Shown here: positions 11,887-46,133 of the stretch, one piece after another
Layout of the letters: each line of letters begins with the position of its first letter
Numbering within the stretch: the first letter of the stretch is position 1
Virus record (IMG/VR): IMGVR_UViG_3300022178_000593
Coordinates: 1-48,007 of that record
From: a virus
Lineage: Duplodnaviria; Caudoviricetes
Length of the DNA: 48,007 bases
Strand: one strand, 5' to 3'
Notes under the pieces: generated by a model
The model's database searches: none
What the model saw: only the letters and a program-made list of their open reading frames with translations
What the model was told of the DNA's origin: nothing
Position numbers and translations under genes: made by a program

Positions 11887-12330
11887 TTAAACCTCGTGCC
11901 ATTCCTTGCCTTCAAATAGTAAGGCTTCTGCTTCTCTACGTCTTATAAGTCCTTCAAGCACTTTGCCACCAGCTTTATTCCATCTTTTAATTTGTGCAGG
12001 CACATTATCAAAATCACTTGAGTTCAATACTTTAAGCATAGTCGAAGCTTTTAAGTTAGCAGGCCCTAGGTTAAATACCCAAGATACCAATGCATCAAAT
12101 TGATTTTGATCAAGATCAACAGTAACGCTATCTTTAACATAACCTTCAAACTCTTTTATATCTTGATCTAATATTTCTTCTGCTTCTCTTTGACAAATTA
12201 AATCACCTTCTTTAACGCCAGCAGTATGACCATATCCTATTGTCCATACACCTGCTGCACATTTGTAAGCATTGTATTCAACACCTTCAAACTTTTTAAT
12301 TAAACTTAATCCTTCTTGCGATATATTCAT
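11887..12330 (-). CDS. Endolysin, GH24 phage lysozyme
   Basis: Start MNISQEGLSLIKKFEG with SD; WTIGYGHT, QFDALVS..FNLG and GL.RRR.AE motifs. Confidence 0.95.
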   Translation of the reverse strand: MNISQEGLSLIKKFEGVEYNAYKCAAGVWTIGYGHTAGVKEGDLICQREAEEILDQDIKEFEGYVKDSVTVDLDQNQFDALVSWVFNLGPANLKASTMLKVLNSSDFDNVPAQIKRWNKAGGKVLEGLIRRREAEALLFEGKEWHEV

Positions 12331-12334
12331 ATTT

Positions 12335-12706
12335 TTACTCTCCTTCTTTTGTAGTAACTTTTTTGTAATAGACAACAACTTCTTTAAGTTCATTTATATA
12401 CCTTTTTAATTCCTGCATATTATATGACATGAGCTCGTAATCGGGCACAGACATAGCTAAGAATACCACTTGACCTTGGTCTTTCTCAACTCTTGTTAAG
12501 AACTCTTCTAAATTTTTATCTGACACTACATACCAATACGGATCTTTTAGATCTATTTCTCTAGGCATTACAGGTTGCACTATAGTTCTTTCTATAGGTT
12601 TAGATATAACCTCAACCTGTTGTTTACTTGGTATCAGGCTGCAACTGCAAGCCATCATCAAGACTGTCAATGTTACGGCTGTCTTCTTCAATGCTATCAA
12701 ATACAT
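12335..12706 (-). CDS. Putative o-spanin (lipoprotein)
   Basis: Signal peptide with Cys (MMACSCS); overlaps the 3' end of the i-spanin gene; adjacent to the lysozyme. Start uncertain. Confidence 0.6.
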   Translation of the reverse strand: MYLIALKKTAVTLTVLMMACSCSLIPSKQQVEVISKPIERTIVQPVMPREIDLKDPYWYVVSDKNLEEFLTRVEKDQGQVVFLAMSVPDYELMSYNMQELKRYINELKEVVVYYKKVTTKEGE

Positions 12707-13019
12707 CTTTAGTTCCTTTGTTTACTCTTGGTTCAATCAAACCTGGTTTAGCTGCGGCTAATTTAGTTAAGTTATGTCGTTTAAATATGTCAAGGTATCT
12801 TGACATTTCTTGTTGAATCTCTTGATTTCTACTTTGTAAGTCTAGTAAGCTCGATGTCTGTAAAGCAAAATCATTTTGTAATGATTCTATTGCTAACCTT
12901 TGTTCTTGATTTCTTATTTCAAATGCTTGATTAAGAGCAGATAGTTTAGAGTTTTCATTCCATAGTAAATAAGTAGCTAATCCCATAACTACTATAATTC
13001 CTATCAAAACTTTAGACAT
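12624..13019 (-). CDS. Putative i-spanin
   Basis: N-terminal TM helix followed by coiled coil; Rz/Rz1-like overlap. Confidence 0.6.
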   Translation of the reverse strand: MSKVLIGIIVVMGLATYLLWNENSKLSALNQAFEIRNQEQRLAIESLQNDFALQTSSLLDLQSRNQEIQQEMSRYLDIFKRHNLTKLAAAKPGLIEPRVNKGTKDVFDSIEEDSRNIDSLDDGLQLQPDTK

Positions 13020-13204
13020 TAACTAATAACCTGCGACAAAACTATTGATACTAGTATGAATGGATACACAGCCCAAATCATATTCTCTAGCTTATCAAAA
13101 CGCTTTGCACCGTCTTCTAGTCTTTTATCAATACTTTTATATAATGCTTTGCATTCTCTTTCATGAGATTCTATTGCAGTAAGTGCGTCTTTTGCTGTTG
13201 CCAT
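13019..13204 (-). CDS. Small coiled-coil protein with C-terminal TM helix (XhlA/holin-like)
   Basis: MATAKD...HEREC...RFDKLE plus a hydrophobic C-terminus; lies in the lysis cluster. Confidence 0.45.
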   Translation of the reverse strand: MATAKDALTAIESHERECKALYKSIDKRLEDGAKRFDKLENMIWAVYPFILVSIVLSQVIS

Positions 13205-13212
13205 ATCTTTCC

Positions 13213-14961
13213 TCAAATTGTATATACGTTTAAAGATTTTTCTTTACCTTTAACTTTAATTGCTTCTAAAGATTTTAACTCAAAACTACAGTTTTTGGCA
13301 GTCTCTTCTCCTATAAGTATATCAACTCCAGCTTCTTTTGTACCAGACTCAAGTCTAGCTGCTATATTTACGCAGTCTCCGATAGCTGAAAAGTCAAATC
13401 TAGTATCAGATCCCATGTTACCTACCACAGCTGTACCAGTATTTACTCCCACCCCAATAGCAATCTCATGTGATAATTCTTTATTAAGTTCTTTTATACG
13501 ATCCTGCATTTCGATAGCAGTCTTTACTGCTTTGTCTTCGTGATCTTCTAAATCTAAAGGTGCTGAGAATATAGCCATGCAAGCATCACCAATAAATTTA
13601 TCTACCATGCCTCCATTTTTTTGTACGCATTCTACTTGTACTGTTAATGCTTTGTTCATTATCTCAGTAACTTCTTCTGGTTTTAGTTTTTCTGAAAGAC
13701 TGGTAAAGCCTCTAACATCTGTAAACAAAAATGTAGCGTATCTTTTTTCGCCACCAAGTTTTAATAGATTAGGATTATCTTGTAATTGTTTAACTTGTCT
13801 TGGATCAAGGTAATGTTCAAATTGTTTTTTAATTAATTGACGTAACTTAAACTGTTTTCTAAAGTTTAAATAGAAAGCTATAGCACCAGTAATGAATTGT
13901 GATACAAAAGTCCACGAAAAATCTATTAAATAACCCTTTTGAATGCTATAAGCTCCTGTAAGGCTTGTAGTAAAGAGTAAAATTACAGCTAGACTTACGC
14001 CTTTAGTTATACCAAGATAGTTAATTACAAGCCATGTCAACGACACAAATATTGCAAAAATTAATATTTCCAACGCAAGAGCAAAATCTGGGATAAAAGG
14101 AGAGTTTTCTAACAAAATTGACTCAGATAATGCTGCTTGAATTTTATGTGGCTCTAATAATCCAACCGGAGTTGCAACTTGCGGCATGATTCCTGGGGCA
14201 GTGACTCCAACAAAAACAAATTTACCTGCTACATCCATTTCTTTTAATGTTGTTTGTGGTGTATTAACCCAACTAATCCACTTACGACCAAGACTATCTG
14301 TTTTGACTGGTGGTATTCCTCTGACTGATATCTCTTGTATACCATTATCATTTGTAGTGATAATGTAAGTTTTAGCACCTGTTAATACTTTTAAGACTTC
14401 TGTGCCAAAAGAAGATACATATCCATCTGGTGTTTTTAATAATAATGGTATTCTTCTAACTAAATTATCTATATCAACCGGTGCACTTGCTATACCTTGA
14501 TTTGATTGATCTTGTAAGATATCAATATTTTGTATAACGCCTGGTGTAAACATACCACCTATATCATTACCTTTTATGACTGTTCCAGTTGTTTTAGGAT
14601 ACTTACCATTTCCGTTTTCAAACATAGCCAGCACAGATGGTGCATAACCTAAAGTAGTAGCAAAGGTTTCATCACCACCCATACGATCAGCTTGTGGAAA
14701 TCCTATAACCCAACCAACTCCCATAGCCCCTGCATTGATAAGATCTACTTGAATTTTTGCAAGACTTCTTCTAGGGAATGGCCAACCTCCTTGCTCTGAT
14801 ACATCGTTTTCAGTAATGTTTAATATTACAAAATTACCGCTTGGCTCGGGTGTTGTTACAAAAGCGTCAAATATTTTTAACTTAAGTATTTCTGTAGGGG
14901 TGCTTTGAAATATTAAAGGTAGTGATAGTAATATAAGTATAGGTAATAAAAGTTTATTCAT
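13213..14961 (-). CDS. CHASE2-domain class III adenylate cyclase
   Basis: N-terminal TM, CHASE2 motifs (GGWPFPR, D.LVRR.PL), three TMs, then the cyclase core [37 protein letters not shown]. Confidence 0.93.
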
Positions 14962-14966
14962 TAATT
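14951..14966. repeat. 16-bp direct repeat, copy 1 (AGTTTATTCATTAATT)
   Basis: Identical to 15621-15636; the pair flanks the methyltransferase gene. Confidence 0.9.
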
Positions 14967-15631
14967 CTTTTTTTAGCTATATCAAAATATTCTTTTATTG
15001 CTTCAAATCCTATAAAATTTCTGTTGCTATTTACTGCAACATAGCCTGTAGTTCCTGATCCCATATAAGGATCTAACACTGTTTTTGCATCAGGAAATAC
15101 TGCAAGCATATCAGCAACAAATTGTTCTGGAAAAGCTCTCGTATGTGAGCCACGAGTTCCAACAGGCTTCCACTCTGTCCAATCAAAAACATCGTGTTTA
15201 TTAATTGTATTAATAAGTTTTGTTTTAGGGCTTTTAGTTAGCCAGTAAATTCTTTCTGTCCAAGGATAAAATCTTATTTTATCAAAATTTTGGCTTCTAT
15301 TTATCCATACTAATTCTTGTTTAATAATAAAATTACTTTTAAGTAACCATTCGTAAGGAGATATTTGAATTCCTTTTTTAATTCTATTTTTATGATTATA
15401 AATCATACTTCCATCATCTTTTAAAACTCTAAAACATTCATTTAAAAGTTTTATTTGTGTTTCTTGGTATTCTTTTTCAGGCAAATTATCGTTGTATGCT
15501 TGATGTCTTTTGTTACCAGTATGATGGCTGTTGCCTAAATTGTAGGGTGGGGATGTAATAATAATATCTATAGATGAGTTATTTATTTTTTTAAAAGAAT
15601 TAAAACAATCGTCTAAATATAGTTTATTCAT
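14954..15631 (-). CDS. DNA N4-cytosine/N6-adenine methyltransferase, beta group
   Basis: N-terminal TSPPY (motif IV), C-terminal DPYMGSGTT (motif I), H...FP motif. Confidence 0.92.
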
Positions 15632-15636
15632 TAATT
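15621..15636. repeat. 16-bp direct repeat, copy 2 (AGTTTATTCATTAATT)
   Basis: Identical to 14951-14966. Confidence 0.9.
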
Positions 15637-16746
15637 ACTCTGAGTTATTTTTATAATACTACCATTTCCACCATTTATTTTAATTAAATTAGAAGTACCA
15701 TCTTGTATGAAGATTACAGTATAGCTTCCAGAAGAATCTATATCTACTCTAGCTGTATCGCTAACACTACGCATAAGTGTTAATACTTCTCCTGTTATAA
15801 AAGATGTTATCTGCGTGCCTAAGTCTTGACCTAGTTTAGTACCAACAATATTAGTAGATGTAGCGTCTTGTGCTAACTGATCTTCTTGTTGTATTTCTTG
15901 TAGTGCGTCTATGACATCTAGCAAATCTTCCAGGAAGTTTACATCAAGATAGTTTATATCTAACTCTGTAAACTCTAGTTCTTTTTCTGAGTCTAAAAAA
16001 TCTTCTTCTAAAAAGTCCTCGTCTAAACCATCAAAGTCTAATATGTTTTTCTTTTTGGTTTGTGTTGTTTCTTCTATAGCCACCTCTTCTTTAGGTGGAT
16101 TAACAATAAGCATATTATCTATAAGGTCTAGTGTTAGGTCTAAGATTACAGGTGAGCTAGGTGATTTTTCAAAAACATCTACCGTTGTAGCTTCGTAAGG
16201 TTTATTAAGTGTAACTGTACCCATAGCTGTAGTTACTAATATCTCACCACTAGAATTACCAAATTCATCTGGTAAAAGTATCAACAACGACCTGCCGATT
16301 TCATCTACGGTAACTGTGAAATCAGTACCACGAATTGCTATGTTTGCTGTGGGTGTTTTAAGATCTATATTGTTTTTATCTATTTTGTTTAGACCGCCAG
16401 TAATAAACCTAGCTGTACCAAGACCAAAGGTAATAGCCATTTTAGATTTACTAGGGTTAGGATCAAAGATGTATTCGTCTATGGTGAGCTGAGAGTTTTC
16501 TGTAAGTCTTACCTTGGAGTCGTCTAGGAACGTAATAGCCATACGACCATTGGTAGTAATTGCTTCATCATTTTGTTGTATATCAAAAGACTCTTCTGCT
16601 TGATAAGGCTTGTCTCTTACTATTTGTGCTGAACCATTTAGTTCAGATATGTTTCCTATATCAACAGCTTGTGGTTGTTCCGCCATCGTTCTGAACGACA
16701 CAAACAGTACCGTTAGAACCAGTAGAGTTAATCTGTAACCAATCAC
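15631..16746 (-). CDS. Exported FecR-domain protein
   Basis: Probable GTG start giving a signal peptide ([17 protein letters not shown]); [15 protein letters not shown] and [14 protein letters not shown] FecR motifs; acidic linker. Start uncertain. Confidence 0.85.
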
Positions 16747-17377
16747 TAGCAAGAGTTGATGACTGTATGATATTGAATGTTCTACTGTTTCCTGTTTGGT
16801 CGAGATAGAAGTAACCACCTGCATATCCGCTTCCTGTAAAGTTTACTGTGTTGCTATCTCCATCTACATCTACATAGTTAGTAGCACCATCATAGTTTAT
16901 ATCAAAATCAAATGTGTTGCTGTCACCATTTATAATCCAGTCTAAATCAAGAGAACCTGCAAGTGCAGATGTTCCTGTATCTAAGGTAAAAGTATTAGAG
17001 CTACCAGTTACGTCTACGTTATAATCTGAGCCATCAATACCATAAGTGTCTGTAGGATCCCCTTGAATAGTAAAGGTATTGCTATCTCCATCAAATTCAA
17101 AAAAACCTGTAATATTATCACCTAGAATATCTCCTAAAAATTTATTGGTATTACCTATTTGGTTTATATCTAGTGTTAAGTTTAAGCCATCTAAATCTAG
17201 TGCTGTAAGCGTTCCTGCAACAGAGTTTAGACCTCCAATAATGTTAGATGATCCTAACTGTTCTAAGTCTATATTTGCTGTGGCACCGCTTTGGTCTATA
17301 TATATTTCGTTATCAGCCGCGTATAGCACTGACACATTCATCAGTACAATTAGGCTCATTAATTTTCCAATATCCAT
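16661..17377 (-). CDS. Curlin-like (CsgA/CsgB-like) secreted repeat protein
   Basis: Signal peptide, then repeats EQLGSSN, NQIGNTN, DGDSNTF, TGSSNTF, NGDSNTF, DGDSNTV resembling curlin QxGxxN; directly downstream of csgG. Confidence 0.65.
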   Translation of the reverse strand: MDIGKLMSLIVLMNVSVLYAADNEIYIDQSGATANIDLEQLGSSNIIGGLNSVAGTLTALDLDGLNLTLDINQIGNTNKFLGDILGDNITGFFEFDGDSNTFTIQGDPTDTYGIDGSDYNVDVTGSSNTFTLDTGTSALAGSLDLDWIINGDSNTFDFDINYDGATNYVDVDGDSNTVNFTGSGYAGGYFYLDQTGNSRTFNIIQSSTLASDWLQINSTGSNGTVCVVQNDGGTTTSC

Positions 17378-18167
17378 TTGTAATTCCTTCCTTAATTGTT
17401 TGTAATACAGCCGTTTCTATAGCTGTTTGTAAGGCAATATTAATAGATTCGTTTCTTACTAAACCGTTTTCTATTTCAACAAGTTCTGTTGAATCGGTTA
17501 TAAACCTAAATACATCTTGATCTATAGATGCACTTAATATTGTTTTGGTTACAAGAACCTCTAGCAGTACCTTTCCTGTACTGACGGAAACTGTGCGTAA
17601 AGATATGGTTACGGTGTCTTGCTTGTATTGCCTAGACATTCCAATGCCTAAGTATCTAGCACCTGCACCACCAGATTTTACGTTGCTTTCGTATGATATC
17701 ACGCCACCTTGCATTATCAAACCTGCAAATAATAAATCTGGTAGCTTTTGTTTATTTTTATTTTCTTGTCTAGCACTCCTAATAATCTGTCTTTCTTTGG
17801 TTACATTGTCTAAACCAACTCTTTCAACCACTTCAAAAAAACCATCATATCTACTACCAGCGTGTTTTAAGGCTCTAATTAAGTATGCGTCTGGTGCCTG
17901 GGTTACTGCTGATGAAAAAGTTGCGTACGAACTATTACTTCGTCTTTGTCCTGTTTGATCTGTGAAAGAAGCTGCATAAATAGCTACAACTGGTTTTTTT
18001 TTGTTAGCTGTTTGTATGTTTGCTAGTTCAGGAACAAGTAATGTTCCTATCGTTGGCTTTTCTATCTTTTGTAATGGGGGTAAGTTGTTTTCTAATGGAT
18101 CTATTATTAATGCACAGCTAGAAAGTAAAGCTACCAATAGGAAGGGATATAGTTGTCGTATTGCCAT
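17313..18167 (-). CDS. csgG: Curli secretion channel lipoprotein CsgG
   Basis: Lipobox LLSSC; FTDQTGQ, SSAVTQ, VVERVGLDNVTKERQIIRS, GGVISYESN..SGGAGARYLGIG and TKTILS motifs. Confidence 0.93.
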   Translation of the reverse strand: MAIRQLYPFLLVALLSSCALIIDPLENNLPPLQKIEKPTIGTLLVPELANIQTANKKKPVVAIYAASFTDQTGQRRSNSSYATFSSAVTQAPDAYLIRALKHAGSRYDGFFEVVERVGLDNVTKERQIIRSARQENKNKQKLPDLLFAGLIMQGGVISYESNVKSGGAGARYLGIGMSRQYKQDTVTISLRTVSVSTGKVLLEVLVTKTILSASIDQDVFRFITDSTELVEIENGLVRNESINIALQTAIETAVLQTIKEGITNGYWKINEPNCTDECVSAIRG

Positions 18168-18645
18168 CTGAGTCTGTTATTTTTAAAGTTATTATTCCAT
18201 CTACAACATTATACTCTATCCTGTTACCTTCTAACTCTAGCACACCACTATCGCTAGGAGTTTCTCCAAATAGGTTTTCTACTAGCTGTCTTGATAATTG
18301 TGCATATATTCTTGATTCTAAGTTACGAATAAACCTAGCTAATGTTGTGTTTTCTTTGTCTCTTTCTATTTCGTCTTGTAAAGCTTTTATTTCTGCTTTT
18401 AGTGCTTGCTTACGATTAAACTGTTGATTCTCAATAGTAAGATAGTGTGCAGATGTACCTATACCAGAAAATGATGGAGACTTAAACTTATGTACCATTT
18501 CGTCTGCTTTCGTGTTTTGAACTAAAACTAATGCAAACATAATTAAACCCATAAATAAAAACCATGCACCCACTCTAGCTTTTGCAGCTTCTTCTTGTTC
18601 TATTTCTTTTTTTGTAAGTCCTCTTTTTTTATAACTTGCAGTCAT
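18118..18645 (-). CDS. csgF: Curli assembly protein CsgF
   Basis: Signal peptide, then EMVHKFKSPSFSG (CsgF N-terminal PxFxG motif) and LESRIYAQLSRQL; immediately upstream of csgG. Confidence 0.8.
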   Translation of the reverse strand: MTASYKKRGLTKKEIEQEEAAKARVGAWFLFMGLIMFALVLVQNTKADEMVHKFKSPSFSGIGTSAHYLTIENQQFNRKQALKAEIKALQDEIERDKENTTLARFIRNLESRIYAQLSRQLVENLFGETPSDSGVLELEGNRIEYNVVDGIITLKITDSDGNTTTISLPIGSFTF

Positions 18646-18995
18646 TAATCCTTCCTCTGGTCGTCTCTATCAGCTTTTGCTAATCTATCAGTATGCATTA
18701 GCTGTGGTACTCCAAGTATAGTCTTGAGAAGCGTATCTTGTCTAATAATCTCATTATCTACAGACCTAACTCTGTCTATAAGTGCTACTAATATACCGTG
18801 TTGTGAGTCTAGTTTTTGACCTAATCTTGCTTCTATTTCTGATATTTGAGCTGATACTTTTTCATCTAAAACATCTACTTTAGTTTCCATGCCATCAATT
18901 ATTTTGTTAATTAGCTTCCAGATAAACATACCAAGCCCTATAGCTGCTGCTATTGGAAAACCAACTTCATTAATTAATTGAACTACAGAATCCAT
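18645..18995 (-). CDS. Holin-like membrane protein (YvrJ-like N-terminus)
   Basis: EVGFPIAAAIGLGMFIWK TM segment followed by coiled coil. Confidence 0.45.
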   Translation of the reverse strand: MDSVVQLINEVGFPIAAAIGLGMFIWKLINKIIDGMETKVDVLDEKVSAQISEIEARLGQKLDSQHGILVALIDRVRSVDNEIIRQDTLLKTILGVPQLMHTDRLAKADRDDQRKD

Positions 18996-19000
18996 TAGGG

Positions 19001-19384
19001 TTAGTAATCACCCCAAACCTTACTTTTGGTACCCCCGTGGTACTCAACTGCATGACCTTCATCTATAAGCATTTGACAAATGTCTTTACCATTTTCTGTA
19101 TATGGTATTCCTAATATGCGGCCATACTTACCTTTGCCTAATGATTTAATTTTAAACTTACCAGTACAAAGTTCTTTTAATCTTTCTTTTGCTGCAAGAC
19201 CTAGTTTTTTTTCTGCAAGATCCCTAGTACGAGATTCTGGAGTATCTATGCCATGCAAACGAACACGTTGTTTATGTAGCTTTACATCAAATCCAAGATC
19301 GAGACAGCAATCAAAAGTATCACCATCCACTATACGTTCTAACGTAGCGTTATATACAAAGGCATCTGGTGCTTTTTTAGCCAT
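19001..19384 (-). CDS. Thermonuclease (SNase-like)
   Basis: IVDGDT, RVRLHGIDTPE and KYGRILG motifs. Confidence 0.9.
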   Translation of the reverse strand: MAKKAPDAFVYNATLERIVDGDTFDCCLDLGFDVKLHKQRVRLHGIDTPESRTRDLAEKKLGLAAKERLKELCTGKFKIKSLGKGKYGRILGIPYTENGKDICQMLIDEGHAVEYHGGTKSKVWGDY

Positions 19385-27310: not shown

Positions 27311-27991
27311 TTAATCTTCCTCTGAAGCATATAAATTATTAAATGTTATGTTCGGATCCATATAACTCTCATGTTGTTCTGCTGAATGCGTCCATTGAGA
27401 AGGCATAAAGTCTGGTGCTCCTTCTCCAACACGCCATAAAGCAGGGTTTGTAGCTCTTACTCTGTTATTAGGTAAAGCTACAAAGTTACCAGTATACTCA
27501 CCAGCGTCTGTTAAATATAACACATGTGATTGCTTATGTTGAGCAGAATCATCAGCTATTGAATTTTCTGTATAATCTACTGTAAATAAATATTTTCCTG
27601 TATAAAACTCTCCACCTATTTTACATATCCAAGGAGATGAACTAACCCTATCTAAAACTACAACAGAATGATGATGGCTTAGACAATCCCATGGTTGAGC
27701 TAAATGATCTTCCATAGGAGAAGGCCATTCTTTTAATGGTATATCTGCTACTAAAGCTTGAATAGGCATTCTTGCCCACATAGCACCGCCATGAACATTA
27801 GGTGCATCTTCTTCGTTATCTATTTCGCAACCTGTAAAGACTACTTGAAACGATAAGGATCTATCTGGAATGGTATTAACAGCTATAACAAGAGCATGTA
27901 AATACTCTCCGTGATAATTACTATGGTTGGCTGTAAACTCTTTTCTCACCCAGCATTTAAACTGCGGGATGTTTGAAATTAAATATGACAA
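27311..27991 (-). CDS. Hypothetical phage protein
   Basis: TTG start with AGGAGAG SD; GA.WAR.PI, QPWDC, Y.FTVD and PNNR segments. Confidence 0.6.
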   Translation of the reverse strand: MSYLISNIPQFKCWVRKEFTANHSNYHGEYLHALVIAVNTIPDRSLSFQVVFTGCEIDNEEDAPNVHGGAMWARMPIQALVADIPLKEWPSPMEDHLAQPWDCLSHHHSVVVLDRVSSSPWICKIGGEFYTGKYLFTVDYTENSIADDSAQHKQSHVLYLTDAGEYTGNFVALPNNRVRATNPALWRVGEGAPDFMPSQWTHSAEQHESYMDPNITFNNLYASEED

Positions 27992-33896: not shown

Positions 33897-35765
33897 CTAC
33901 CTACCTCTTCTTCTTGGCATCATTGGCATTCTTGATTCTAAAGGCATTAACATTGGTTTGTTTGCCAAAGATAAATTTCTACTAGGCATAAAATCACGCG
34001 ATATAGACATTTGTCTATCCATTGAGTCTAATTCTTGTTGATCTAATCTCGGTAAATCTATTGGTGACATTGGCATAGGCGTTGCTATCGGAGCAGGCAT
34101 AGGCATCCTTGGTTGCATAGGCATAGGCATTGGATTAGGCATCATAGGCATTTCTTCAGGTAAAAAATCTGGAGTTGGAGGCATAATTCCTGGGCCAAAG
34201 CCAAAGTCTTGTGGAGGTAGTGGCACTTGAGGTATGGGTTGTTGGTTGCCAATCGCATCTACTCTAGGCCTTAACAAAGGATCATCGGCTGGTGATTGTA
34301 AGGGTGGAGGTGGTGTTATGGGTAAAGACACAGGCTCTTGTGTTCGTCTGTCTCTAGCTATTTGTCTAATTTCTCTGTCAATAGGACCAAGATTACTAAG
34401 ACCTGCGTCGTAACTATCGAGAATACTTTGTCCCATATTAGTAATGTCTATTGGGATTTCATTTGGTGGTAGTTTAGGTGGAAAGCCACCGCCAGCACCA
34501 CCGATTGATGGACGTGGAGTTGGTCTATATTCATTTTCATCAATAGGAATTTGATCTGCTATACGCATACCTTGTTGATTAGTGCCTTGATATTTATTTA
34601 TAAAATCTTGATTAAATGCATTACCAGCTACACCAGATACTTGCTCGTTAAAAGTTGGGCTACCTCCTAAAAAGGATACACCTTCATCTAATCTAGGATC
34701 TGGTACCCCACCTCTAGGTCCACCGATTGACATGAAATCATCACGTCCACGTCTAGTTGGTGCATTTATAATTTCTTTTAAGCTAGGCTGAGTAGGTATT
34801 GAACGCTGTGGTTCTTGTGGTATCGTGCCTCCTGCATCAGCTATTCTTTGATTTATTGCATCCATATCAATATTAGAAAAATCAAAATTAAATAAGTTTG
34901 GATTTTCCAAACCACTAATCATAGGACGATCTATCATCATGTTATCCATAGGTATATCCATAGGGGTTTCATCAACACTAGGATCCTCTACCATAATAGG
35001 AGGTTCTTCTCTACCAGTAAAAGGAGGCATTGGTGGCATTTTATTATGTGATACTACACCATCAACCATGTAGGTATGAGTATTAGAAGTAGTAAAGTTA
35101 TACACTTTTATAAAATCTTTTTTACTTTCAAGTTTTGTAACTTCTTCTACACCATCTTTAGTTATTAATTTATCACCTAGCTGTAATTCTTTAACCTCTA
35201 TTCCATAATCGTTATAAACTGTATTAGATAGTTTAGAGTTATTAGATTTCCACCCATCGTTAGTTAAGAAAGCATGAGCATCTGTAGCAGTTATTCTATC
35301 GTTTATAGTCCATAAACTTCTGTCAGCTTTCGGAATATCATGTACATAAGAAACTACATCTGTTTCACCATTTAGAGCTAATACTTCGTCTCCCATTGCA
35401 ATATTTTCAATAACTTTTTTAGTTCCATCAGCCATATCAATTTTAGTTCCTGCTACAAAACACATAATCGGAGGAGGAGTAATATCTCGAGGAGGCATTG
35501 GAGGTGGCCCAGGAATACTTCTTAATGGTGGCTGTGCTCTGAACATATCTCCAATAGGATCACCCATAGTATCTGTTGGCATGAAAGCCTGTTGTGGTTG
35601 CATGGGTGGTGTGTAACCTTCAGGAGTAAAATAAGCTGGGCCGCCTTGAACTAAGGTAGGTCTAGGTGCAGCAGGTCTAGCCATAGCTGATCCCATGCCT
35701 CCACCTGAATCTCTGCCAGGTATACCTTTTCTTGCTGACTTAACTAATTTACTAAAAAGTCCCAT
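33897..35765 (-). CDS. Pro/Met-rich low-complexity protein with embedded Hint domain
   Basis: CFVAGTKI...IENI..GD.V...T..H...VYNF...HTYMVDGVVSHN at 35462-35043. Confidence 0.8.
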   Translation of the reverse strand: MGLFSKLVKSARKGIPGRDSGGGMGSAMARPAAPRPTLVQGGPAYFTPEGYTPPMQPQQAFMPTDTMGDPIGDMFRAQPPLRSIPGPPPMPPRDITPPPIMCFVAGTKIDMADGTKKVIENIAMGDEVLALNGETDVVSYVHDIPKADRSLWTINDRITATDAHAFLTNDGWKSNNSKLSNTVYNDYGIEVKELQLGDKLITKDGVEEVTKLESKKDFIKVYNFTTSNTHTYMVDGVVSHNKMPPMPPFTGREEPPIMVEDPSVDETPMDIPMDNMMIDRPMISGLENPNLFNFDFSNIDMDAINQRIADAGGTIPQEPQRSIPTQPSLKEIINAPTRRGRDDFMSIGGPRGGVPDPRLDEGVSFLGGSPTFNEQVSGVAGNAFNQDFINKYQGTNQQGMRIADQIPIDENEYRPTPRPSIGGAGGGFPPKLPPNEIPIDITNMGQSILDSYDAGLSNLGPIDREIRQIARDRRTQEPVSLPITPPPPLQSPADDPLLRPRVDAIGNQQPIPQVPLPPQDFGFGPGIMPPTPDFLPEEMPMMPNPMPMPMQPRMPMPAPIATPMPMSPIDLPRLDQQELDSMDRQMSISRDFMPSRNLSLANKPMLMPLESRMPMMPRRRGR

Positions 35766-45200: not shown

Positions 45201-45511
45201 TGAATACATATATATTAAAAATAAGGGGTGGCTTGGAGTTCGATATTCAAGCCAAAGACTTACTTGATCTACACTCGCAAATTAATCTTACCTTTATGAA
45301 TGAGCTGGGTTATTACCTAGATGATTTCATAAGCATAGAACTAAAGAAGCCAAACATGATAAGCGTATGCGAAGAATGTAGGACGCAATCATGGACTATG
45401 GAAGATGTAAATGGTCAACCAATTACTAACCATGCAGGAAAGGACGCATACTGTTTTAAGTGTGATGACTTTGCCCATGTCATTGAGATAGAGGAGGTAG
45501 TCAATGGATAG
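45200..45511 (+). CDS. Zn-ribbon early protein
   Basis: CEEC...CFKC. Confidence 0.6.
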   Translation: MNTYILKIRGGLEFDIQAKDLLDLHSQINLTFMNELGYYLDDFISIELKKPNMISVCEECRTQSWTMEDVNGQPITNHAGKDAYCFKCDDFAHVIEIEEVVNG

Positions 45512-46133
45512 AAGCAATATAAAAGTATTGGTTGCTTGTGAGTATAGTGGAACAGTAAGGGACGCATTCCTTGAACTAGGTTTTGACGCTTGGTCTTGCG
45601 ACATACTACCATGCGAAAGCGATATACAAGATAGACACTATGAGGGAGATGTCTTTGACATCTTGGATCAAGGTTGGGACTTAATGATAGGACACCCACC
45701 ATGTACTCATCTATCTGTTAGTGGAGCAAGGTGGTTTACTGAGGGTAAGAAACCAATGTATTTAAGAGATGAGGCTATTGAGTTTGTTCAGAAACTTATG
45801 GACGCACCAATCAAACACATAGCCATTGAGAATCCAGTTAGTGTTATCTCATCTTACATAAGGAAATCAGATCAAACGATTAACCCTTATCAGTTTGGAC
45901 ACAAAGAATACAAACGCACTTGCTTATGGCTAAAAGATTTACCCAAGCTGACTGAAACAGATAATGTTAAGGAAGCTACTGACAAACTACACCCTAAAGA
46001 AAAGCATAGGATTTGGTGGATAGGTAGTGGCAAGGGTAAAGAAAGGAGTATGTTCTACACAGGCATTGCTAAGGCCATGGCTGATCAATGGGGAACATAC
46101 ATAGAACAAAGTATCAACAAGGAGAATGACTAA
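45504..46133 (+). CDS. Short phage C5-cytosine DNA methyltransferase-like protein
   Basis: VLVACEYSG, WSCD, HPPCT (motif IV) and IENPV (motif VI). Confidence 0.8.
   Translation: MDRSNIKVLVACEYSGTVRDAFLELGFDAWSCDILPCESDIQDRHYEGDVFDILDQGWDLMIGHPPCTHLSVSGARWFTEGKKPMYLRDEAIEFVQKLMDAPIKHIAIENPVSVISSYIRKSDQTINPYQFGHKEYKRTCLWLKDLPKLTETDNVKEATDKLHPKEKHRIWWIGSGKGKERSMFYTGIAKAMADQWGTYIEQSINKEND

Follow-up and report, generated by a model that had tools for sequence, protein, structure and literature searches.

A curli-type gene block with a FecR-domain protein and a CHASE2 adenylate cyclase in an HTVC023P-type podovirus: a candidate pore-tethered surface sensor

The stretch analyzed here, referred to as the window, is a single virus record of 48,007 bases (IMG/VR IMGVR_UViG_3300022178_000593). 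On its minus strand, between tail-associated genes and the gene for a 631-aa virion protein, lies a block related to bacterial curli secretion, in which the genes follow each other in the order SNase, m116, csgF, csgG, a 238-aa repeat protein, FecR, a DNA methyltransferase, a CHASE2 cyclase, a 61-65-aa protein, two spanins and a lysozyme. An earlier note, made from the letters alone, had described five overlapping genes at 13213..18645 (csgF, csgG, the repeat protein, FecR and the cyclase). These genes are real and intact and lie inside those limits, but they do not form one contiguous run, since the methyltransferase stands between FecR and the cyclase; the limits also leave m116 (18995-18645) just outside and omit the adjoining spanins and endolysin. 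The window copy is a real, intact and ordinary member of the published pelagiphage "curli" module. The accessible parts of Wittmers et al. 2022 (PMC9599517) report the module, FecR and cyclase genes included, from nine genomes of the HTVC023P type as well as from myoviruses, and in their supplement the cyclase is annotated as CHASE2. The novelty that the earlier note had been unable to confirm is thus gone, as the same cluster, phage type and FecR and cyclase genes were already in that paper.

The window shares with the viral type VIII secretion module of Wittmers et al. and Zaragoza-Solas et al., as far as these sources describe it, the gene order (small "HK", csgF, csgG, csgA/B, fecR, cyclase), the phage type and the lack of CsgE, CsgC and CsgD: the csgF-csgG-curli repeat order is present, with m116 before it, FecR after it and the cyclase downstream. 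It differs in having no second curlin, in the methyltransferase before the cyclase and in that its "HK" gene bears no kinase features. Conservation was assessed in two sets of viral matches, the top 80 of 581 and the top 80 of 598, together 149 loci, which gave 140 contigs after removal of 9 duplicates bearing the same contig name and which are close relatives by selection. The five genes keep the order of the window in 85 of the 86 contigs where all five are visible, as the earlier note had supposed. FecR and cyclase are adjacent in 113/130 contigs, separated by insertions in 16/130 and rearranged in 1/130.

CsgF (18118..18645, minus strand) matches the Pfam CsgF model at positions 6-132 with E 2.7e-18; it carries a long signal sequence with a mature start predicted near residue 48, and no direct sequence match to it was found among solved CsgF chains. 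CsgG (17313..18167, minus strand; Pfam CsgG E 3.6e-49) is an outer-membrane pore lipoprotein with a lipobox cysteine at position 18, as in curli systems, and matches E. coli CsgG structures at E 4e-42. These scans, together with those for FecR and the cyclase given below, bear out the gene identities that had been read from the sequence. The sixth gene of the block, m116 (18645..18995, minus strand), encodes a 116-aa membrane protein with one N-terminal hydrophobic segment and a coiled coil. It is homologous to genes at the same position in the myophages HTVC008M (30% identity to gp012) and Melnitz, resembles a blend of two paralogues found in other phages, and has no match in the module-free phages HTVC023P and DSL-LC04. 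Judging by its position, it corresponds to the "HK" gene of Wittmers et al. We rejected a histidine kinase, as there is no kinase match in Pfam or NCBIfam and no invariant His in 31 aligned homologues. Profile-profile comparison of m116 with other small membrane genes was non-significant, and one homologue has a sub-threshold YvrJ match.

The repeat protein (16661..17377, minus strand; 238 aa) has a signal peptide followed by a predicted beta-solenoid, is strongly acidic (31 D/E against 2 K/R) and ends in a Cys pair. It has no Pfam match, including Curlin_rpt, and no PHROG match, and its similarity to CsgB is sub-threshold (E 0.06); the window curlin profile finds HTVC008M gp016 at E 1e-31. 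AlphaFold predicts a 16-strand beta-solenoid with a pLDDT of 83, in line with the fold suggested by the earlier note. The top viral structural matches of the model are named "Curlin associated" (TM 0.78), and the Pontibacter CsgA structure 8c50 aligns over 193 residues (Z 16.8, rmsd 8.9, 21% identity); SufBD-type helices score close to CsgA (Z 16-18) at 4-6% identity. Foldseek against the PDB gave no match at E <= 0.001, and neither the curlin nor the FecR profile had a significant sequence match among solved structures. In the curlin kernel, Asn is invariant at 7 motif starts and Gln at 4 of the 17 motif ends examined; the Gln ladder is retained in the end repeats only, its central positions being replaced by hydrophobic residues. 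Because of this invariant Asn ladder and restricted Gln ladder, we take the protein, predicted to be a beta-solenoid, to fit the degenerate curlin class of CsgA described, with the kernel, by Sleutel et al. (PMC10192328, in the part available).

The repeat protein is also where the amyloid-export reading of the module has to be weighed. According to the accessible parts of Zaragoza-Solas et al. 2020 (PMC7029224, "sibling capture") and Wittmers et al. 2022, CsgG and CsgF would secrete a polymerising curlin for aggregation or superinfection shielding, with FecR and cyclase as accessory regulators. The pore, CsgF and a protein with a predicted curlin fold are all present and conserved, canonical Gln positions are kept in the terminal repeats, degenerate curlins are a recognised CsgA class (PMC10192328) and metatranscriptome expression is reported in the available text of PMC9599517. 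Hydrophobic residues nevertheless replace the central Gln ladder, the account of the cultured phage Melnitz by Buchholz et al. (PMC9004378), in its accessible part, records no clumping, and a lytic cycle would probably leave little time for fibre growth. The amyloid-like surface structure conjectured earlier therefore loses ground on the first two points. The TolC-linked relatives described below add another, in that amyloid export leaves the persistence of the same cyclase clade and small membrane genes with a TolC set unexplained. We regard amyloid export as unlikely, though it deserves to be kept in view.

The FecR-domain protein (15631..16746, minus strand; Pfam FecR E 2.6e-10) lies in an open reading frame (ORF) whose longest form starts at 16824; its start is likely the GTG at 16746, which aligns with the ATG of relatives. 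It consists of a signal peptide, the FecR domain, a 78-aa acidic linker (27 D/E) and a small C-terminal beta domain. The signal peptide is read in a different frame from the final 86 nt of the curlin gene (16661-16746). Aligned relatives show the same overlap, which may help to conserve the C-terminus of the curlin. At its other end, the protein carries a curlin-like tail of about 1.5 repeats (15634..15723, minus strand) ending in hydrophobic-x-hydrophobic-x-Gln; four of its residues, Q321, G323, I338 and Q342 (counted from the mature start), are the same in 41/41 sequences. The same curlin-type terminal strand was found in 132 of 133 curli-linked FecR proteins of podo- and myoviruses (43 distinct tails), in 3/3 of those of jumbo phages, proteins of twice the length, and, among 150 distant representatives listed, in 61 of the 74 that measure 330-410 aa. 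By comparison, it occurs in 0/7 TolC-linked phage FecR proteins, one of which bears RTX repeats in its place, in 1/37 cellular FecR proteins, and in 19/1766 background ORFs, five myovirus curlins among these 19. The tail type thus appears, at the level of sequence, to track the secretion system. The available text of Wittmers et al. (PMC9599517) describes no such FecR tail.

This tail bears on whether the pore could simply be a passive channel, for nutrient or cofactor uptake or with a pinholin- or secretin-like opening, while the cyclase works independently, for example by reprogramming a CRP-bearing host. Such a channel would agree with the absence of the CsgE gate from the window, with the tolerance for cargo between FecR and cyclase (the 16/130 contigs above) and with the possibility of a CRP-bearing host, a close relative being recorded on Gammaproteobacteria. 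A passive channel gives no reason, though, for the curlin, FecR and the curlin-type tail of FecR to be kept so strictly with csgG. CsgG is an outer-membrane lipoprotein and pinholins act in the inner membrane, so that a pinholin-like role clashes with its location. We consider a passive channel improbable.

The cyclase (13213..14961, minus strand) is a class III CHASE2 receptor adenylate cyclase (CHASE2 E 1.5e-26, Guanylate_cyc E 5.7e-23) with an N-terminal membrane anchor, a periplasmic CHASE2 domain (about 14928-14047), further hydrophobic segments and a catalytic domain (about 13737-13234). Class III cyclases depend on two metal-binding Asp residues, an ATP-specifying Lys, a Ser or Thr, and an Asn/Arg pair. 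D415, D459, K455, N532 and R536 are invariant in 42/42 aligned sequences, and the class IIIb position 525 is Ser in 30 of them, including the window, and Thr in 12. The enzyme therefore has the residues of an active class III adenylate cyclase, as had been noticed before, and is predicted to make cAMP. It is 34% identical to HTVC008M gp019.

A genome search with the window cyclase (best 80 of 129 matches, from which 10 phage-like loci were set aside) left 70 cellular loci. None of the 70 holds csgG, and a FecR-domain protein is the neighbour of a cellular CHASE2 cyclase in 37 of 57, many of them from Paenibacillus, which suggests that FecR and CHASE2 cyclase form a curli-independent pair in cells. 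In the Paenibacillus loci (L180-L226) the cyclase is followed by a FecR-domain protein of 500-700 aa; as these Gram-positive bacteria have no outer membrane, their pair must be anchored in some other way. A quick tree of 61 chosen cyclases (SH-aLRT support only, midpoint root) places the 42 phage-type cyclases in one clade, with two cellular cyclases, L169 and L178, as sisters. The sister loci (L169:3838-15820, L178:4078-12342) combine TolC-ABC-HlyD, a CHASE2 cyclase and a convergent gene with cyclic nucleotide monophosphate (cNMP)-binding and EAL domains, and L169 also has an adhesin with BapA_N, FecR and FG-GAP domains; they are a candidate circuit for cAMP-to-c-di-GMP control of adhesins.

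The same cyclase type also occurs in phages beside another pore. Two of the phage-like contigs encode a large FecR protein, TolC-family and HlyD-family proteins, then the cyclase and two m116 homologues, with no curli genes. A 248-aa gene between their TolC- and HlyD-family genes lacks any Pfam match and is called a possible ABC membrane domain from resemblance. A viral search with one such TolC-linked cyclase (best 80 of 306) gave 80 jumbo-phage loci with a related cyclase, of which 27 have TolC/HlyD-type genes, 11 csgF/csgG, 2 both and 40, mostly short, neither. Of the 80, 59 have an m116 homologue and the other 21 a different small membrane gene; three loci have two cyclases. Seven jumbo-phage sets (L157:1243-11395, L258, L264, L274, L301, L244, L292) join a FecR/RTX-type adhesin to TolC and their own CHASE2 cyclase, together with a 248-aa membrane protein without an ATPase match and a short HlyD-family protein, and in L244 a TolC set and a curli set stand head to head with one cyclase each. 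These curli and TolC comparisons point to a conserved core of FecR protein, CHASE2 cyclase and small membrane gene or genes, with a pore that varies with the FecR tail. The outer-membrane part of the module thus seems to be swappable between the CsgG and TolC types.

The myophage curli regions, HTVC008M gp011-gp019 and Melnitz genes 97-104 (PMC9004378, in its accessible part), share with the window CsgG (44% identity), cyclase (32-34%), FecR (41%) and a small membrane gene (30%), and their FecR proteins likewise end in a curlin-type strand. They differ in that their backbone is T4-like, that they carry a second curlin and a pair of small membrane genes, and that no lysis genes are annotated alongside. 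Enterobacterial curli (CsgABC-DEFG) have homologous CsgG and CsgF and a beta-solenoid subunit; the phage system differs from them in lacking CsgC, CsgD and CsgE, in its single degenerate subunit and in its coupling to a FecR-CHASE2 cyclase pair.

Taken together, we read the block as a likely pore-tethered surface sensor that controls cAMP synthesis, an interpretation to which we give about an even chance. It is favored because the FecR tail tracks the secretion system and the outer-membrane part is swappable; because FecR and CHASE2 form a curli-independent cellular pair, the phage cyclases being one clade with sisters beside TolC-ABC-HlyD; and because FecR and cyclase stay adjacent in 113/130 contigs and there are precedents in NsrA and LapA. 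The earlier idea of an envelope-spanning signaling unit is strengthened by the same comparisons of gene order, tail, TolC swap and cellular FecR-CHASE2 pairs. Starting from the observed genes, catalytic residues and tail motif and from the predicted curlin fold, events would run as follows. Late in infection, CsgG and CsgF would be built into the outer membrane of the host, and the curlin-like protein would extend from CsgF as a short stub or fibre at the cell surface. The FecR protein would itself be a substrate of the pore, threaded through CsgG by its curlin-like tail, which would stack on the curlin, while the acidic linker would span the pore. The folded FecR domain, too large to pass, would be retained in the periplasm, as the LapA retention module is in a TolC-like pore, and could there contact CHASE2, such that contact or load outside the cell might change cyclase activity and tune cAMP.

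Two bacterial systems resemble parts of this scheme. In Sinorhizobium meliloti (NsrA/CyaD1-CyaD2-CyaK/Clr), the outer-membrane component NsrA signals to CHASE2 cyclases (PMC13001267, in its available part), and the FecR gene smc02177 is numbered next to cyaD1; that pathway differs in that its outer-membrane part is a beta-barrel and its output the CRP-family Clr, which has no counterpart in the phage. In LapA-type retained adhesins, of which LapA in LapE is an example (10.1101/198937, in its available part), an N-terminal periplasmic domain holds the secreted protein in its own pore; the likeness to the phage FecR protein is one we infer. The phage has another pore, would export by Sec and then CsgG, and has no LapG or LapD, nor, compared with L169 and L178, a cNMP-EAL effector. 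We rejected the FecR protein as a LapA-type member, as there are no type I secretion genes in the window and no retention-module match, and use LapA as an analogy only.

Several observations weigh against the sensor interpretation. The terminal-strand pattern was defined after seeing the FecR alignment and then applied to the other sets. Profile-profile comparison of the FecR tail with curlin was not significant (probability 1%), and an Atlas match of the tail to a cluster with 28% Curlin_rpt (score 0.82) is a lead only, so that the tail argument rests on a short motif. The AlphaFold model of FecR is poor (pLDDT 42 overall, about 80 at residues 270-330) and retrieved no fold match (best Z 4.0). 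Paenibacillus dominates the cellular FecR-neighbor count, and L178 has no FecR neighbor by the FecR profile. Wittmers et al. (PMC9599517), in the part available, state that viral curli regions may lack FecR and the cyclase, and the Sinorhizobium FecR protein SMc02177 is described as dispensable for signal perception in the accessible part of PMC5498481. A readout for cAMP is also hard to find: of the 10 phage records with the module that were searched, 6 being complete or nearly so, none encodes a cNMP-binding domain, and only 4 of 101 Pelagibacteraceae genomes, whose completeness is not stated, do.

These counts also bear on the output by way of a host protein that the earlier note had considered: if the host is SAR11, a host CRP does not explain it. 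The 59 ORFs scanned in the window hold no CsgE, CsgC or CsgD and no cNMP-binding protein, in agreement with what had been noticed before. A class III cyclase was found in 3 of the 101 Pelagibacteraceae genomes, at least one of the three being this phage module, and in one Pelagibacter metagenome-assembled genome (MAG), L237, one of two cNMP matches sits in a long ORF resembling a secretion ABC transporter and not CRP. Close relatives of the window phage are recorded on Pelagibacter and on Gammaproteobacteria, and MAG matches are scattered over unrelated taxa. The leading candidates for a cAMP target are the small membrane protein or proteins that stay with the cyclase; lysis timing as their output is a tentative suggestion of low probability.

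Downstream of the cyclase, all on the minus strand, follow a 61-65-aa coiled-coil protein with a C-terminal hydrophobic segment that moves with lysis genes (13019..13216), an Rz-like inner spanin (12624..13019; PHROG 739, E 2.8e-12), an outer spanin-like lipoprotein (12335..12706; PHROG 812, E 1.2e-11) and a phage lysozyme or endolysin (11887..12393; Pfam Phage_lysozyme E 6.8e-49). Among 103 podovirus contigs that extend at least 1.5 kb downstream of the cyclase, 84 have named lysis genes in that interval; of the remaining 19, 13 have an unassigned holin-like two-helix membrane gene alone and 6 none, and in three of these 6 a lysozyme is found upstream of the block. Non-homologous lysis sets (lysozyme and spanins, or a holin with three transmembrane segments (3TM) and an M15 peptidase) are represented, on three backbones. 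Holin, lysozyme and endolysin go unmentioned in the available portion of the main text of Wittmers et al. (PMC9599517).

The block could therefore be a lysis-timing device, in which cAMP or a direct conformational signal to small holin-like membrane proteins delays or triggers lysis according to outside conditions. This account is compatible with the sensor model and names its output. It draws on the adjacency and on the non-homologous lysis sets just described, on a weak holin PHROG match of m116 (E 2e-5) and on a lysis role proposed on other grounds in the accessible part of Buchholz et al. (PMC9004378). Yet module-free DSL-LC04 has a holin and an M15 peptidase in the same slot, so the adjacency may mean no more than that the module inserted into a late-gene slot and was transferred together with its neighbors. 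In HTVC008M and Melnitz the block has no annotated lysis gene next to it, lysozyme or spanins of the window type, the only lysin types compared, occur in 0/80 jumbo-phage loci, and m116 has no cNMP-binding domain. Lysis timing is, in our judgment, rather unlikely.

A further family of the lysis region, c7 (e.g., L041:3322-3804; 161 aa, two C-terminal hydrophobic helices, PHROG 1544), adjoins the lysozyme, and its place is taken by the 3TM holin or by spanins in other phages. It is probably an unannotated holin; since profile-profile comparison with the 3TM holin was non-significant, we call it holin-like by position and hydrophobicity only.

The gene between FecR and cyclase encodes an N6/N4 DNA methyltransferase of 225 aa (14954..15631, minus strand; Pfam E 7.6e-32). 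It has 28% GC and is present in 2/140 related contigs, both >99% identical to the window, while L060 matches both flanks at 94-95% and lacks the gene. A 16-nt exact direct repeat stands at the methyltransferase/cyclase junction (14951..14966) and again at the FecR/methyltransferase junction (15621..15636), and stop-start coupling is preserved at both. Its rarity, its GC content and the unrelated cargo at the same junction elsewhere led us to reject it as a component of the system; from its sequence context it is a recent cargo insertion. The FecR-cyclase junction is an insertion hot spot in L143, L085, L086, L098, L105, L134, L145 and L146, and cargo found there in other phages includes a C5 methyltransferase, a pyrimidine-dimer glycosylase and small genes of no known function.

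Terminase (59-61%) and capsid (64-70%) identities to HTVC023P, HTVC027P, 023Pt_psg01 and DSL-LC04 identify the window as an HTVC023P-type podovirus without its replication arm, in keeping with the podovirus-like appearance noted earlier; terminase, capsid and GroES of this backbone are all present. PolA lies outside the 48-kb contig, and therefore no PolA clade of the Wittmers scheme can be assigned. An assembly chimera was rejected as far as contigs show: both methyltransferase junctions are crossed by contigs in three runs, each from a different study, and 4/4 runs cover all 30 bins, with no single piece spanning the whole stretch. The 14 runs that best match the window are labeled freshwater (12) or microbial mat (2), so "marine" is not established for this population. 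RNA-labeled runs contain 8-13% of the window words in 4/5 cases and 51% in the fifth, which may be DNA. In phages with an SU10-type capsid and portal (L003-L012 and others), compared with window positions 15627-18652, FecR is 95-97% identical and the cyclase only about 70%; such a difference on another backbone suggests that the csgF-to-fecR segment was recently exchanged between phage lineages.

Elsewhere in the window, an SNase-family nuclease whose place differs among relatives adjoins the block (19001..19384, minus strand). The gene that separates portal from GroES (33897-35765, minus strand) encodes a low-complexity protein of 622 aa, rich in Pro and Met, whose residues 102-239 match a Hint domain; it is possibly a self-processing virion protein. 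There are also a second DNA methyltransferase (45504-46133, plus strand) and a protein matching a PHROG "ferredoxin" family (27311-27991, minus strand). The promoter scan gave 24 sites, fewer than the 42 in shuffles, and the window holds no tRNAs.

What is new here is the distribution of the FecR tail, the curli/TolC swap with the same cyclase clade, the recognition of "HK" as a membrane coiled-coil protein and the lysis adjacency in podoviruses. Our literature search, which left most subscription journals outside its coverage, returned nothing on a FecR curlin tail, a curli/TolC swap or cyclase-controlled lysis timing, and for CHASE2 with adhesins only unrelated papers. The comparisons replace the loose notion of a "curli auxiliary gene" by a model that can be tested, in which a pore-tethered FecR protein controls a CHASE2 cyclase, and tests are feasible because two cultured phages, HTVC008M and Melnitz, carry the module. 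A bolder conjecture, to which we attach a low likelihood, is that phages repeatedly build a private trans-envelope sensor from a CHASE2 cyclase and a pore-threaded FecR protein (by a curlin tail in CsgG or an RTX-type tail in TolC), its cAMP being read by small coiled-coil membrane proteins other than CRP that time lysis in hosts without cAMP signaling of their own.

The module is abundant in aquatic phages, at about 0.1% of assembled viral proteins according to the available text of Wittmers et al. (PMC9599517). If the sensor model is true, an unrecognised cAMP effector would be implied, because the phages searched and most SAR11-family genomes have no cNMP-binding domain. CsgG would then serve as a tether, beyond its role as an amyloid exporter, and FecR-CHASE2 pairs, which are widespread in bacteria, would gain a physical mechanism.

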